Origin: Escherichia coli
GTDB taxonomy: Bacteria > Pseudomonadota > Gammaproteobacteria > Enterobacterales > Enterobacteriaceae
Length of the DNA stretch: 64,000 nucleotides
Direction: 5' to 3' (one strand)
NCBI RefSeq assembly: GCF_046105845.1
Contig: NZ_CP151004.1
Shown here: positions 740 through 24,771 of the stretch, in pieces
How positions within the stretch are numbered: the stretch's first letter is position 1
Layout: every line of letters starts with the position of its first letter
Program-made: the position numbers and the translations under genes
The notes under the pieces: model-generated
The model's database searches: none
Told to the model about the DNA's origin: nothing
The model's input: only the letters and a program-made list of their open reading frames with translations

Positions 740-955
740 TTAATCAGTAATTATGACATTTGCTGCTGCAGGACCTTTAGCACCACTCTCTACAGAGAAG
801 GTAACCTTTTGACCTTCAAATAAGGTTCGAAAATTATCATTCTGAATCGCAGAAAAATGCACAAACACATCTTTACTACCATCAACAGGAGAAATAAAGC
901 CAAAACCTTTATCAGCGTTAAACCATTTTACTAAACCAGTCATTTTATTTGACAT
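740..955 (-). CDS. cspB: Cold shock protein CspB (CspA family)
   Basis: 71 aa [38 protein letters not shown]...; canonical RNP1/RNP2 motifs of the CspA family. Confidence 0.9.
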
Positions 956-1255: not shown

Positions 1256-1468
1256 TTGTCCCGTAAAATGACAGGAATTGTCAAAACCTTTGACGGCAAA
1301 AGCGGCAAGGGTCTTATCACCCCATCCGATGGTCGTATCGATGTCCAGCTTCATGTTTCAGCGCTCAATCTCCGCGATGCAGAAGAAATTACCACCGGAT
1401 TACGCGTGGAATTTTGCCGGATAAATGGTCTGCGTGGCCCTTCAGCTGCCAATGTTTACCTTTCATGA
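1256..1468 (+). CDS. cspF: CspF/CspH-like cold shock domain protein
   Basis: 70 aa [26 protein letters not shown]...; TTG start with AAGGAA RBS; divergent from cspB as the cspB-cspF pair in K-12 Qin. Confidence 0.8.
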
Positions 1469-4463: not shown

Positions 4464-4853
4464 TCAGGCGGCTGCACCCGCCGTTTTCTCGTACTTACTG
4501 ATAGTGATCTCGACCTTCCCTTCCGGGATAACCGGTCCCCACTCCACCAGCATTCTTTTCACCTGACTGTCGTCTTCCCACACACCCGCGTGGGTCAGGG
4601 CGTCAAACAGCGCCTTGTTATAGTTGTCCAGATCGCGGATCCGGTTATCCGGAGGAAACAACACGATCTCCACTGAAGCAGGTGCCGACGTTGGTTTTGG
4701 CAGACGACGTAACTGCTCAAATATTGCTGCACACGCCGCGCTCTGGAATTTGCGCCCCGCCGCGCTTATCAGGCTCTTACCAGCAAACGCCCCTTTGTTG
4801 GGGTGTCGCCAGTACGTGTTCACGCTGGGCGGGAAAGGCAGGATCAGCTTCAT
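4464..4853 (-). CDS. rusA: RusA-family Holliday junction resolvase
   Basis: 129 aa; RusA-like motifs (RDLDNYNKALFDALT...); typical lambdoid nin-region location. Confidence 0.85.
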   Translation of the reverse strand: MKLILPFPPSVNTYWRHPNKGAFAGKSLISAAGRKFQSAACAAIFEQLRRLPKPTSAPASVEIVLFPPDNRIRDLDNYNKALFDALTHAGVWEDDSQVKRMLVEWGPVIPEGKVEITISKYEKTAGAAA

Positions 4854-5209
4854 ACTTTCAGGCCCCTCTCATGTAACCAGTGGGCTGCACGCAGTCTGGC
4901 GTTTTCCTCACCGGCAAGCAGTGCGCGGATAATCCCGGCTGCCTCGCTGTCGTCGTCCTTCACTGTGGTATGAAGCGTGATACCCCGGGCCACGCCACGC
5001 TTTATCGTGATGACGCCTTTTTTCTCCAGTGCGCGAAGATGCTCCACCGCTGCATTCACCGAACGGTATCCCAGCATGGCTGCCACCTCCTGATTGGTTG
5101 GCGGGAAACCACGTTCTTTCTGATAAGAAATCAGCATATCCAGCACCTGCTGCTGGCATTGAGTTAACGTCGTCATTAAGCCCACACGTAATTCCCTGAC
5201 AGATACCAC
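4850..5209 (-). CDS. LexA N-terminal-domain-like DNA-binding protein (no peptidase domain)
   Basis: 119 aa; LTQCQQQVLDMLISYQKERGFPPTNQEVAAMLGYRSVNAAVEHLRALEKKGVITI closely resembles the LexA winged-helix DNA-binding domain. Confidence 0.6.
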   Translation of the reverse strand: MVSVRELRVGLMTTLTQCQQQVLDMLISYQKERGFPPTNQEVAAMLGYRSVNAAVEHLRALEKKGVITIKRGVARGITLHTTVKDDDSEAAGIIRALLAGEENARLRAAHWLHERGLKV

Positions 5210-5664
5210 TCATCACCCGATACAGCGCGCTTGCTGCTTTTCCGTAAGCACCGCTCACGGCGCGCCAGAAAATTGTTTCGTTCTGACTGGGAGTGGCTTT
5301 CACGGAATGCCGCCATCCACACGGTTGCAGCACGACGGTATAAGCCCCTGGACTCCAGTTCTTCAGCCTGGCGGGTCAGGCACAAAATTACCCGGGGATC
5401 GTTAGTGCCGACATAGAAATTGCGCACAGGTCTGGTTTCACGAACTGGTTGTGGTTCCGGCTCCTGCGCTCTCTCAGTCAGGCGCGGGAAATGTCTGCGT
5501 GTATTTCCTTCACAACGGTGAGCCACACGCCCACTCTGACGTAACTTGCTTGCTGACTGCAGAACGCGCTGCCGTGAGTAACCTGCAAAAGCATCTGCAA
5601 TGTCTCCGGAAGTACACCCCGGATGGGCTTCAATGAATTTCTGAACTTCATTCAAAAGACTCAT
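5176..5664 (-). CDS. PerC/Pch-family-like transcriptional regulator
   Basis: 162 aa; C-terminal LESRGLYRRAATVWMAAF matches the conserved PerC-family RRAA..W motif (from memory). Confidence 0.5.
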   Translation of the reverse strand: MSLLNEVQKFIEAHPGCTSGDIADAFAGYSRQRVLQSASKLRQSGRVAHRCEGNTRRHFPRLTERAQEPEPQPVRETRPVRNFYVGTNDPRVILCLTRQAEELESRGLYRRAATVWMAAFRESHSQSERNNFLARRERCLRKSSKRAVSGDEWYLSGNYVWA

Positions 5665-5666
5665 GA

Positions 5667-6485
5667 TTACCCCCTGAATCCTGCCGGGATCTGGCTGTAG
5701 TCCACGTTGTCGTAACTGGCTTTGAAGTACGGGTCCTCGCGTCTGGCTGCAGATACCGCAGGAACTTCCCAGGATTCTTCGAAATGACGATCCGGACCAA
5801 AGAACGTGACAGCCTGTTTCACAAATTGTGTGCCGCTGTTACCCATCGCAGATACCCAGCCCGCGTAGCGTTTCACACCTTCCAGCATGGTTTCGGGTTT
5901 TACCCCCTCATTCAAACGGGCTTTCCAGGCTTTGAAGGCTGCAGATTTTGAATTGCCACCAGCACGTTTGGGGTATGCCAGCCATGCCTGCTCAAACTCC
6001 GGAGAGTATTCCGGTCGGTTTGAACGAACTCGCACAGACTCATCAGCAGATGCACCAACAGCTATTGGTTCATTGACTGGTTCTTTGACTGGTTCAAAAG
6101 AGTGACTGGTTCTGGGTGAATCTCCTGCACCACCCCCTGGTGCAACTCCTGCACTACCTGGTGAATTTGCTGCACCAGATAGTGAATTATTTGCACTACC
6201 CCCTAGTGAATCTCCTGCACCATCAAGATGAAGGAGATAGATATTACTTGAGTTACCTTTTTCACCTTTCCGGGTGACTTTTTTTACCAGCCCGGAATCA
6301 CAAAGGGCCGCAATATGATTCATCACAGAACGTTTGCTAATCTCGCACTGGTCAGCAATATGCTGGTAGCTGGGCCAGCACTCACCCTGATCGCTGGCAT
6401 TATCAGCCAGCTTGATCAGAACCAGTTTTCGCAATGGATTACCCACTCGAATTTTCATCGCTTTAACCATCAGCTCCATACTCAT
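5667..6485 (-). CDS. Phage replication initiation protein (O-like) with DnaT-like C-terminus
   Basis: ORF 5667..6524 (TTG); likely ATG start at 6485 overlapping upstream stop; N-terminal winged-helix, Gly/Ser/Pro-rich linker encoded by iterons, C-terminal ...YSQIPAGFRG like host DnaT. Confidence 0.7.
   Translation of the reverse strand: MSMELMVKAMKIRVGNPLRKLVLIKLADNASDQGECWPSYQHIADQCEISKRSVMNHIAALCDSGLVKKVTRKGEKGNSSNIYLLHLDGAGDSLGGSANNSLSGAANSPGSAGVAPGGGAGDSPRTSHSFEPVKEPVNEPIAVGASADESVRVRSNRPEYSPEFEQAWLAYPKRAGGNSKSAAFKAWKARLNEGVKPETMLEGVKRYAGWVSAMGNSGTQFVKQAVTFFGPDRHFEESWEVPAVSAARREDPYFKASYDNVDYSQIPAGFRG
6074..6222. repeat. Iteron array (putative prophage replication origin) inside replication gene
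   Basis: Three copies of tgactggttc (6074, 6086, 6103) then five ~18-bp repeats related to ggtgaatctcctgcacca starting at 6115, 6139, 6160, 6181, 6205 (21-24 bp period). Confidence 0.6.
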
Positions 6486-6718
6486 GCTGCACCTCCGAGA
6501 TGCTTCATGTTTTTTCCGGAGCAAAAGGCTATAAGCGGCATACTGATGCGGTAATTACGGCCCAGCGGTTCACAAATCACCTTCTGACATTCACGGTCAA
6601 CCAGGCTAACACGTAGAACATGCCCTGCAGGCGTGGTGTACCACTGCCCAACTGTAGGAATTGATGTTTTTTTACGCTGAAGCAAACGGCAAATATTGAG
6701 GATCAACGGATTAAGCAT
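6482..6718 (-). CDS. Hypothetical prophage protein
   Basis: 78-aa ORF translationally coupled (ATGA overlap) to the replication gene. Confidence 0.45.
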   Translation of the reverse strand: MLNPLILNICRLLQRKKTSIPTVGQWYTTPAGHVLRVSLVDRECQKVICEPLGRNYRISMPLIAFCSGKNMKHLGGAA

Positions 6719-8429: not shown

Positions 8430-9104
8430 ATGAAAACAATCCATGACATCCGGCGGTCTAACGCCAGAAAACTGAGAGATGGTGTTGGCGGAAATTCATC
8501 CTTTGCCACCATGATTGATCGCGAGCCAACCCAAACCAGCAGGTTTATGGGGGATGGCGCTACTAAAAATATCGGTGACAGCATGGCACGGCACATCGAA
8601 AAATGTTTCGACCTGCCTGTCGGATGGCTTGATCAAGAACACCAGACAACGAACATCACAAAAAAACCTGATGTTTCAATCACTAACAAACAAATAACGT
8701 TAGTCCCTGTCATATCATGGGTACAGGCCGGAGCATGGAAAGAAGTTGGCTATTCTGAGGTTGATTTGAGCACAGCAGAAACGTATCCCTGCCCTGTACC
8801 CTGTGGCGAAATGACTTATATCTTGCGGGTGATTGGTGATTCAATGATTGATGAGTACCGCCCTGGAGACATGATTTTTGTTGATCCCGAAGTCCCTGCC
8901 TGCCACGGTGACGACGTTATTGCATTGATGCACGATACAGGCGAAACCACCTTCAAGCGATTGATAGAAGATGGAACACAGCGTTATCTCAAAGCATTAA
9001 ACCCAAACTGGCCTGAGCCTTACATTAAGATTAACGGTAATTGCTCTATAATTGGTACAGTGATTTTCTCGGGAAAACCAAGAAGATACACAATAAAGGC
9101 CTAA
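8430..9104 (+). CDS. CI-like prophage repressor (HTH + S24 LexA-type peptidase domain)
   Basis: 224 aa; C-terminal LRVIGDSMIDEYRPGDMIFVDPE ... FKRL resembles S24 Ser/Lys autoprotease. Confidence 0.85.
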   Translation: MKTIHDIRRSNARKLRDGVGGNSSFATMIDREPTQTSRFMGDGATKNIGDSMARHIEKCFDLPVGWLDQEHQTTNITKKPDVSITNKQITLVPVISWVQAGAWKEVGYSEVDLSTAETYPCPVPCGEMTYILRVIGDSMIDEYRPGDMIFVDPEVPACHGDDVIALMHDTGETTFKRLIEDGTQRYLKALNPNWPEPYIKINGNCSIIGTVIFSGKPRRYTIKA

Positions 9105-23491: not shown

Positions 23492-24031
23492 ATGTCTTCC
23501 AGAGTTTTAACCCCGGACGTCGTTGGTATTGACGCCCTGGTACACGATCACCAAACCGTTCTGGCAAAAGCTGAAGGCGGTGTGGTTGCCGTATTTGCTA
23601 ACAATGCCCCGGCGTTTTATGCCGTCACGCCTGCACGCCTGGCTGAACTGCTAGCGCTGGAAGAAAAGCTGGCGCGTCCGGGAAGCGATGTCGCTCTGGA
23701 CGATCAACTCTATCAGGAACCGCAAGCTGCTCCCGTTGCTGTACCCATGGGGAAATTCGTCATGTATCCGGACTGGCAACCCGATGCCGACTTTATCCGC
23801 CTGGCGGCGCTATGGGGCGTGGCACTAAGAGAGCCGGTGACCACCGAAGAACTGGCCTCATTCATTGCCTACTGGCAGGCGGAAGGTAAAGTCTTTCACC
23901 ATGTGCAGTGGCAACAAAAACTGGCGCGCAGCCTGCAAATCGGTCGTGCCAGCAACGGCGGACTGCCGAAACGAGATGTGAATACGGTCAGTGAACCTGA
24001 CAGCCAAATTCCACCAGGATTCAGAGGGTAA
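23492..24031 (+). CDS. dnaT: Primosomal protein DnaT
   Basis: 179 aa [19 protein letters not shown]... ending [13 protein letters not shown]. Confidence 0.95.
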
Positions 24032-24033
24032 CG

Positions 24034-24771
24034 ATGAAAAACGTTGGCGACCTGATGCAACGCCTGCAAAAAATGATGCCTGCCCATATCAAACCTGCTT
24101 TCAAAACGGGTGAAGAACTACTGGCCTGGCAGAAAGAACAAGGGGCGATCCGCTCCGCCGCTCTCGAACGTGAAAATCGGGCGATGAAAATGCAGCGCAC
24201 CTTTAACCGCTCCGGTATTCGTCCACTGCATCAGAACTGCTCCTTTGAGAACTATCGCGTTGAGTGTGAAGGGCAAATGAATGCGTTAAGCAAAGCGCGC
24301 CAGTATGTCGAAGAGTTTGACGGCAACATCGCCAGCTTCATCTTTTCTGGTAAGCCAGGAACCGGCAAAAACCATCTGGCGGCGGCAATCTGCAACGAGC
24401 TGCTGCTACGCGGTAAATCCGTATTGATCATCACCGTGGCCGATATTATGTCGGCGATGAAAGATACCTTCAGGAATAGCGGTACCAGCGAAGAACAACT
24501 GCTTAACGATCTGAGCAACGTTGATCTGCTGGTGATCGATGAGATCGGCGTGCAGACCGAATCGAAATACGAAAAAGTGATCATCAACCAGATCGTCGAT
24601 CGCCGCTCTTCTTCCAAACGCCCAACCGGGATGCTGACCAACAGTAATATGGAAGAGATGACCAAGTTGCTGGGCGAACGCGTGATGGACCGTATGCGCC
24701 TGGGTAATAGTTTGTGGGTGATCTTCAACTGGGATAGCTACCGTAGTCGGGTAACGGGTAAAGAGTATTAA
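24034..24771 (+). CDS. dnaC: Helicase loader DnaC
   Basis: 245 aa; Walker A GKPGTGKNHLAAAI. Confidence 0.95.
   Translation: MKNVGDLMQRLQKMMPAHIKPAFKTGEELLAWQKEQGAIRSAALERENRAMKMQRTFNRSGIRPLHQNCSFENYRVECEGQMNALSKARQYVEEFDGNIASFIFSGKPGTGKNHLAAAICNELLLRGKSVLIITVADIMSAMKDTFRNSGTSEEQLLNDLSNVDLLVIDEIGVQTESKYEKVIINQIVDRRSSSKRPTGMLTNSNMEEMTKLLGERVMDRMRLGNSLWVIFNWDSYRSRVTGKEY

Follow-up and report, generated by a model that had tools for sequence, protein, structure and literature searches.

A lambdoid prophage initiator with iterons in its own gene and a DnaT-type tail associated with DnaC-family helicase loaders

In phage lambda the replication origin, ori-lambda, lies in the O gene, with dyad-symmetric iterons in the DNA that codes for the linker of the O protein. 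Here we examine a replication gene of comparable layout in a lambdoid prophage of Escherichia coli, found in a window of 64,000 nucleotides (the whole stretch of DNA analysed, from contig NZ_CP151004.1 of assembly GCF_046105845.1) that also holds the host dnaT-dnaC operon. Like lambda O, the gene stands in the early operon after cII-like genes and has dyad-symmetric iterons (four to five, about 20-24 base pairs (bp) apart) in its linker DNA. Unlike lambda O, its product has the Pfam domain HTH_36 in place of Phage_rep_O, there is no P gene downstream and no clear AT-rich segment lies beside the iterons. Lambda O recruits DnaB by way of P, with a folded C-terminal domain, whereas for the window protein we propose a terminal peptide that reaches the host loader directly. 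The origin-in-gene layout is of a known kind, and it is the tail of the protein and the distribution of that tail that are of interest. The reading we favour, which we consider probable though not secure, is that the sole replication protein of this prophage carries the phage origin in its gene and that its DnaT-type tail, cognate to DnaC-family loaders, recruits host DnaC(-DnaB).

The second system for comparison is E. coli DnaT (primosomal protein i). The window protein and DnaT both end in (S)QIPxGFRG with a free carboxyl end, and both would act upstream of DnaB-DnaC loading. However, the window protein does not have the three-helix single-stranded DNA (ssDNA)-binding domain of DnaT, its trimerisation and PriB-binding N-terminal domain or its acidic linker, and whereas DnaT is brought to forks by PriA and PriB, the window initiator would be brought to its own origin by sequence-specific binding. 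The route by which PriA-PriB-DnaT recruits DnaB/DnaC 'remains unknown' (PMC13377028), and contact of DnaC with PriA, PriB or DnaT has never been shown (PMC13377028, PMC11087952). The DnaC substitution A84Y (dnaC1331) specifically blocks the PriA-PriB-DnaT loading pathway (PMC11087952).

Initiators that contain a DnaT domain form a third group, comprising SPN1S gp46, phiV10 gp43, the epsilon15 protein and Rac YdaU, as well as DopC and DopE (Brezellec et al. 2017, PMC5509034). They are phage or domesticated initiators and resemble the window protein in being modular, with an origin-binding N-terminal domain, often of the HTH_36 type, joined to DnaT-related C-terminal parts, but all carry the DnaT ssDNA-binding domain, which the window protein does not. 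SPN1S shares with it an end in ...EIPPGFRG and the lack of a loader, whereas phiV10, YdaU and DopC are without the tail and are paired with a P-like protein. The literature on these proteins describes the domain, and the tail as a separate motif was not found in searchable papers. Further likenesses are more remote. SSB's C-terminal tail (...DDDIPF) is a protein-recruiting peptide, and the DnaT-type tail may be regarded as analogous in being a short conserved free C-terminal docking peptide after a disordered segment; the SSB tail binds many partners and is of another sequence class, while the DnaT-type tail appears specific to one loader family. RepA of pSC101 and pi of R6K are likewise single element-encoded initiators with iterons and a reliance on host DnaB-DnaC, but their origins also use DnaA and DnaA boxes, they have no sequence relationship to the window protein, and there is no DnaA box near the window gene.

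Within its own family the window gene is an ordinary member. SfV Orf39 and K-12 YfdO (CPS-53) belong to the same family, with YfdN-like PerC, Dam and RusA genes as neighbours, and there is no difference of substance between them and the window gene. Members are labelled in databases as 'replication protein', 'helix-turn-helix domain-containing protein' or 'primosomal protein I', and no origin or tail function was recorded in the SfV Orf39/YfdO entries examined. What we propose is that the window protein falls into a class of initiators with a DnaC-cognate tail, which have IPxGF(R/K)G in the last 10 residues after a disordered segment and are accompanied either by an adjacent DnaC-family loader or by no phage loader, never by a loader of another type; the window protein has the tail and is of the loader-less kind.

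The initial annotation of this stretch, made from sequence alone, took the gene for a prophage replication initiator, and our analysis agrees. Along its full length the protein is similar to phrog_270 ('replication initiation protein'; E = 1.5e-88, residues 3-271), and the gene shares 97.5-99.9% DNA identity with replication genes of the phages SfV, mEp460, Ayreon and 2H10 and of many Stx2c-converting phages, the value for SfV orf39 ('replication protein') being 97.5%. The gene begins with ATG at 6485 and ends with TAA at 5667-5669; E. coli JNEC-KY175 has an identical gene, to which PGAP gives the same limits and only the label 'helix-turn-helix domain-containing protein'. The initiator region is present in 2,728 of 5,426 complete E. 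coli genomes and covers at least 80% of its length in 840. The absence of a P- or DnaC-like loader, also claimed initially, extends beyond the early operon, where Pfam matched no helicase loader: no helicase, loader or primase is found in the PGAP annotation of the whole identical prophage in JNEC-KY175, nor in that of the complete genome of SfV, a viable relative. In the viable phages SfV, mEp460 and Ayreon and the Stx2c phages, an initiator of the window type is the only replication function. As helicase, loader and primase are all missing from the phage, it would fall to the initiator to bring in host DnaB-DnaC.

From its N-terminus the protein is built of a winged helix, a linker rich in Gly, Ser and Pro, a small helical C-domain and the DnaT-type tail. 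HTH_36 is its sole Pfam domain, a weak match of the N-domain to DnaD_N (23.2 bits) falling below the cut-off, and the small four-helix C-domain has no solved structural neighbour. The near identity of the tail to the end of host DnaT was confirmed by BLASTP, in which residues 264-272 (SQIPAGFRG) aligned with DnaT residues 171-179 (SQIPPGFRG), with 8 of 9 identical and E = 0.010 for the pair, and nothing outside the tail could be aligned. The two cores are encoded at 5670-5696 and 24002-24028, respectively, and the initiator ends ...DYSQIPAGFRG directly before its stop codon. Host DnaT contains the Pfam DnaT domain (PF17948) at residues 89-154 (E = 1.1e-20). No match to this domain was found in the initiator, including its C-terminal half, even at E <= 10, the NCBIfam DnaT model did not match, and hhalign gave a probability of 1% between the initiator C-domain and DnaT domain profiles. 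Membership of the DnaT family is therefore ruled out, and of the resemblance only the terminal 9-11 residues are left; there is no homology at the level of domains. Taken literally, this is one of the outcomes that the initial annotation had named as refuting its proposal. This does not dispose of the idea of a functional link, because the tail is an autonomous module found on many unrelated domains. In an AlphaFold2 model of residues 156-272 (m248cb9e6a020) the last 7 residues form a short helical turn with a predicted local distance difference test (pLDDT) score of ~71, preceded by ~14 residues with pLDDT < 50, and it is possible that in this isolated model the end of the tail folds back onto the C-domain. 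Among close homologs the tail is swapped as a unit, directly after ...FEESW.xP.

The conservation of the tail in DnaT itself is informative. Across 19 full-length DnaT orthologs (below 50% identity) only the ssDNA-binding helix is more conserved than the tail, which surpasses the N-terminal domain by far in this respect; its residues I171, P172, G174, F175 and R176 are conserved at 70-90%. When DnaT relatives were clustered at 50% identity, IPxGFRG was seen to persist in orthologs from very divergent, AT-rich genomes and also to end many proteins of initiator size (240-580 amino acids). A search for related loci by family alignment returned only relatives that were 98-100% identical, and unbiased censuses by DNA pattern, together with look-ups of contigs for exact proteins, were therefore used for diversity. 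For the censuses, viral contigs were scanned for the back-translated motif followed by a stop codon, in one set for TAA and in another for TGA. In-frame C-termini of initiator-like proteins accounted for 119 of the 120 TAA hits listed and 118 of the 120 TGA hits listed, and the phage initiators of the TAA set, otherwise unrelated, form at least 25 protein clusters. The architectures that bear the tail include Phage_rep_O (as in locus L019 of our set), DUF1376 (YdaU-like), HTH_36, Phg_2220_C, the DnaT domain and proteins with no Pfam domain. Such a spread suggests that the tail is an autonomous functional module and not a chance resemblance. A further set of initiators, of the Aeromonas type with a DnaT domain (Aeromonas phage pAEv1818, L007:2389-4061; L274, L279), has the shortened tails ...KPPGFN, ...IPPGFN and ...KPPEFN and is followed by a DnaC-family loader; these ends form a natural variant series of the tail.

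The tail is associated almost exclusively with one family of loaders. For 181 listed tail-bearing initiators there was enough sequence downstream for the next genes to be read: a DnaC-family loader follows in 55 cases and neither loader nor helicase in 126, while a P-like gene, a 292-amino-acid IstB-type gene or a DnaB-like gene was found downstream of none of the 181. The coupled loaders have 245-250 amino acids, match Pfam IstB_IS21 and are 48-51% identical to full-length E. coli DnaC; in the TAA-stop census they start at a median of 6 nucleotides past the initiator stop. Sampling in the reverse direction gave the same picture. The gene before the loader ends in IPxGF(R/K/T)G or IPPGFN for 79 of 80 listed phage DnaC-family loaders and in KPPEFN for the 80th; a tail-bearing gene precedes none of the 77 listed lambda-P-like loaders and none of the 80 listed IstB-type loaders of 292 amino acids. 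The initiators that partner P-like loaders have acidic tails (...LDCTDWRDD, ...DSPDRFDD, ...GDWTSDE), and those that partner IstB-type loaders with a DnaB-like helicase end in ...FGESGENLNF or ...QDYGQSDCNW. Each loader class is accompanied by its own class of initiator tail (L211:4001-7097, L213:4001-7091, L214:4001-7102; loci L302-L461). Counted by lineage the contrast is smaller, although for adjacency to an 'other loader' it still gives p = 2.4e-6.

The same rule is seen within families. Genes for an IstB-type loader and a DnaB-like helicase lie after those homologs of the window protein that share its N-domain, iterons and C-domain but end in ...GENLNF, ...NKLTF or ...DCNW, whereas all 52 of the 52 window-type tails in the census have neither loader nor helicase. 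SPN1S, with the tail and no loader, and phiV10, with a P gene and no tail, belong to the same genus and share synteny. A single case, P0190, appeared to be an exception in having the tail together with a P-like gene; it was rejected as a counter-example, since the remains of a DnaC C-terminus directly adjoin the initiator in this mosaic and the P gene is truncated at its N-terminus, which marks a recombination scar. The scar lies in a metagenomic phage (L009:4516-5191), where a tail-bearing initiator with HTH_36 and DnaT domains is followed by ~60 codons of a decayed DnaC C-terminus and an N-terminally truncated P-like gene. Phage loci in which a dnaC-like gene comes after a tail-bearing one have the same order as the host dnaT-dnaC operon, and for this reason shared descent or module exchange of the tail is at least as likely as convergent mimicry.

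The retention of the motif in the 126 loader-less loci and in DnaT argues for a target in the host that acts in trans, and in our preferred reading that target would be DnaC. It has to be asked whether the tail docks instead on host DnaB, or on a surface formed only when DnaB6-DnaC6 is assembled. The association with DnaC-family loaders would then arise since only DnaC-type loading leaves it to the initiator to contact the helicase, P serving as the bridge between initiator and DnaB in P-type systems. Host DnaT, the phages with a DnaC homolog and the loader-less phages do all use host DnaB; tail-bearing initiators have a DnaB-like helicase of their own in none of the 181 listed cases, the alternative tails going with phage-encoded helicases; and the tail was left undocked in an AlphaFold2 fusion with DnaC alone. 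Yet P-type phages also use host DnaB and have the tail in none of the 77 cases listed, tail and loader family go together strictly (79 of 80 listed), a pairing of the two proteins is suggested by the dnaT-dnaC operon and by the initiator-dnaC gene pairs, and the A84Y phenotype points to a surface of DnaC (PMC11087952). We regard docking on DnaB or on such a surface of the complex as unlikely, though less so than the other alternatives. As to where on DnaC the tail might bind, A84 lies within a GQxxALSxA patch (residues 80-89) that E. coli DnaC and the tail-coupled phage loaders share without change and in which IstB-type loaders differ. The patch may be considered a candidate docking surface, as a lead and not as a result.

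A second alternative would deny the tail any partner-specific role and make it an aid to ssDNA binding or oligomerisation, or else a linked passenger of the loader 5' flank that was spread by mosaic recombination. In its favour, DnaT without residues 154-179 binds ssDNA with about twofold lower affinity and with lower cooperativity (PMC4132743), the median of 6 nucleotides between tail end and loader gene in loader-containing phages (TAA-stop census) amounts to tight linkage, and the pLDDT of ~71 for the last 7 residues in the isolated C-domain model might reflect an intramolecular contact. It is difficult to reconcile, however, with a motif that is kept in the 126 listed loader-less loci and in DnaT orthologs of divergent AT-rich genomes, that is found on at least six unrelated domain architectures, and that within the window family is exchanged exactly when a loader and helicase of the phage's own are gained or lost. 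We consider this explanation very improbable.

The other half of our reading concerns the origin. Five iterons lie within the DNA for the Gly/Ser/Pro linker, at 6206-6220, 6182-6196, 6161-6175, 6140-6154 and 6116-6130, with spacings of 24/21/21/24 bp, about two helical turns; on the + strand they take the form GTGAAT.TCCTGCAC, in five copies starting at 6116, 6140, 6161, 6182 and 6206. Each is a 15-bp inverted repeat of GTGCA. The 15-mer with up to three mismatches has 11 matches in the window against 3.3 expected, a number that no shuffle reached, and 5 of these 11 are packed into 105 bp of one strand. At any given position the nine fixed half-site bases would all be matched with a chance of about 4e-6, and there are five such exact matches in the 105 bp. 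Adjoining the iterons are three shorter direct repeats, which start on the + strand at 6074, 6086 and 6103 with a spacing of 12-17 bp and whose gene-strand form (GAACCAGTCA) is kept in homologs from Klebsiella, Citrobacter and E. coli; they might serve as an unwinding element or provide a second binding site. Both sets of repeats are where the initial annotation had placed them, and the clustering of the five iterons is far beyond chance.

The linker repeats might of course be a mere coding footprint of a low-complexity Gly/Ser/Pro linker, produced by slippage, with the origin elsewhere. Such an origin for them is consistent with spacings that are multiples of 3, with a repeat number that varies among close relatives (proteins of 242-302 amino acids) and with flanks that are not strongly AT-rich. 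Iteron number appears polymorphic in near-identical relatives (proteins P0001, P0009 and P0030), this range of lengths corresponding to roughly 2 to 9 iterons. A comparison of four homologs (two from E. coli, one from Klebsiella and one from Citrobacter, with 68-84% protein identity to the window protein) proved informative in this respect. The five sites occupy identical positions in the gene (266, 290, 311, 332 and 356), and in 20 of 20 sites there is no change at any of the 9 half-site positions, three of which are four-fold-degenerate wobble positions, whereas the central 5 bp differ, as do the residues they encode (GD, NN, AN, GV). Half-sites that are fixed at wobble positions around variable centres indicate a constraint on the DNA and not on the peptide, which tells against a footprint of the linker. 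The recognition-helix region (...SKRSVMNHI...) is kept in homologs with the same iterons and differs where the repeats differ: homolog L021, with another recognition helix, has in the same place four unrelated 23-bp repeats with the dyad TGCCA-N5-TGGCA. The layout, moreover, equals that established for lambda O and ori-lambda, a likeness which the initial annotation had seen and which this conservation and covariation reinforce. We think it highly probable that the linker repeats are the phage origin, which would thus lie inside the initiator gene and presumably be bound by the winged helix; that they are a slippage product is in our estimate highly unlikely. Recruitment by DnaA was considered and rejected, as no DnaA box, even with one mismatch, occurs between 4445 and 7556, that is, within about 1 kb around the gene.

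The least probable alternative is that the tail lets the initiator replace DnaT in the PriA-PriB restart primosome. The tail is shared with a preprimosome protein, and some phages and plasmids do start replication through PriA (PMC5778457). Yet DnaT touches PriA with the hydrophobic face of its C-terminal domain and PriB with its acidic linker and N-terminal domain (PMC13377028, PMC5778457), and the initiator has none of these, as it contains no DnaT domain and nothing similar to the N-terminal domain. The tracking of DnaC-family loaders by the tail, with its absence from P- and IstB-type systems, would also be left unexplained. This was the form in which the initial annotation had put the matter, as a primosome hijack through DnaT mimicry. 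The part of that proposal which holds is that the shared tail appears to be a functional module; nothing points to PriA or PriB, and mimicry is doubtful as the direction of events. The tail tracks DnaC-family loaders, and on that ground the initiator is better read as recruiting host DnaC(-DnaB) directly.

In the mechanism we favour, dimers of the N-terminal winged helix would bind the five GTGCA-N5-TKCAC iterons within the DNA that codes for their own linker, the initiator would open the origin there, and host DnaB-DnaC would be brought to the opened origin by the initiator. The last ~10 residues (...DYSQIPAGFRG) would serve as a free C-terminal short linear motif that captures host DnaC or the DnaB6-DnaC6 complex, and DnaT presumably uses the same peptide likewise at restart forks. 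A number of points weigh against this view. The censuses consist mostly of enterobacterial prophages and are redundant and phylogenetically non-independent, and their counts are of matches listed. The tail-coding DNA abuts the loader gene, and co-occurrence could in part reflect the genetic linkage of one recombination block; nor can co-occurrence separate DnaC from DnaB6-DnaC6 as the target. For DnaT, the tail (154-179) has been given only a modest role, in cooperative ssDNA binding (PMC4132743), and a 2026 cryo-electron microscopy paper favours the N-terminal domain for the recruitment of DnaB/DnaC (PMC13377028). When DnaC, a GS30 linker and the DnaT tail were modelled by AlphaFold2 as one chain, the tail was undocked with a pLDDT of 36-39 (DnaC ~70-83); with 24 paired rows from natural initiator-loader pairs, monomeric DnaC, a shallow alignment, no multimer mode and no scrambled-tail control this is a weak test, which lends docking no support but does not decide the matter. 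With regard to the origin, some relatives (250-amino-acid variants) have only ~2 iterons, and the 250-amino-acid form is common (64 contigs), while the iteron flanks, with a GC fraction of 0.37-0.47, are mildly and not clearly AT-rich.

The distribution of the tail gives a specific hypothesis for the open step of E. coli replication restart, since the comparative pattern singles out a 9-residue peptide and one loader family for the recruitment of DnaB-DnaC. We tentatively suggest, at slightly less than even chance, that IPxGFRG in DnaT is the missing link of the PriA-PriB-DnaT pathway, which captures DnaC, possibly near A84, and so delivers DnaB6-DnaC6, and that enterobacterial phage initiators draw on an interchangeable 'tail code'. 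In such a code IPxGFRG would correspond to DnaC-family loaders, ...DxDWRDD/...DRFDD to P-like loaders and ...GENLNF/...DCNW to IstB-type loaders with a phage helicase. This would offer a rationale for the dnaC1331 (A84Y) phenotype. It suggests more generally that in phages the match between initiator and loader class is specified by short C-terminal peptides that can be exchanged, which might be of use in annotating replication modules and predicting host dependence; if true, a swap of ~20 codons would rewire a phage from its own helicase system to that of the host. No description of the tail as a loader-binding motif, of any such role for it or of a tail code was found in the searchable literature. 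For the phages themselves, our reading would explain how a large and very common group of lambdoid prophages (including SfV and Stx2c-converting phages) replicates with a single replication gene, and it pinpoints the likely phage origin. The features on which the argument is based are collected in Table 1.

Table 1. Location of the initiator gene, its parts and the host genes in the 64,000-nucleotide window
Feature	Coordinates	Strand	Basis or remark
Replication initiator gene, SfV Orf39/YfdO type	5667..6485	-	Open reading frame and translation, 272 amino acids
Tail of the DnaT type at the C-terminus, DNVDYSQIPAGFRG (residues 259-272); proposed to dock on DnaC-family loaders	5670..5711	-	
Conserved C-domain (~residues 155-240, ...YPKRAGGNSK...FFGPDRHFEESW)	5766..6023	-	Four helices, no DnaT domain
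Three 10-11-bp direct repeats, + strand TGACTGGTTC, gene strand GAACCAGTCA	6074..6113		Encode EPVKEPVNEP
Five iterons GTGCA-N5-T(T/G)CAC (gene strand), presumed phage origin core	6116..6220		
N-terminal winged-helix domain (residues 17-67), presumed iteron reader	6285..6437	-	Pfam HTH_36, E = 2.8e-11
Host dnaT, 179 amino acids	23492..24031	+	NCBIfam primosomal protein DnaT, E = 1.5e-104
Host dnaC, 245 amino acids, proposed target of the tail in trans for the prophage	24034..24771	+	Open reading frame

The initiator gene belongs to the early operon of the prophage, downstream of cro and CII-like genes. On the gene strand it is preceded by genes for a cI-like repressor (8430..9104, +), Cro, a CII-like protein, an Ash-family protein and a protein of 78 amino acids, and it is followed by a PerC-like gene, which is immediately 3', and then by genes for a LexA DNA-binding-domain protein, RusA, KilA-N, DUF968 and Q. 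The host dnaT-dnaC operon (23492..24771) is ~17 kb away in the window. In JNEC-KY175 the identical prophage is integrated beside yjjG, a few kb from dnaT-dnaC, and because its position follows from this integration site the nearness of the prophage to the operon is coincidental.

The 78-amino-acid gene (6482-6718, - strand; phrog_1153, SfV orf38) overlaps the initiator start by 4 nucleotides, which suggests translational coupling. The PerC/ANR-like regulator, a YfdN homolog of 162 amino acids (5176-5664, - strand), starts 3 nucleotides past the initiator stop, and in relatives of the prophage a Dam methylase gene is inserted after it. The protein encoded at 4850-5209 (- strand, 119 amino acids) is made up solely of a LexA DNA-binding domain (Pfam E = 4.3e-19); it lacks the S24 self-cleavage domain and could sit on SOS boxes as a LexA look-alike that cannot be cleaved. 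Cold-shock genes occur in the late region of the prophage, cspB-like at 740-955 (- strand) and cspF-like at 1256-1468 (+ strand), as in the Qin prophage of K-12.

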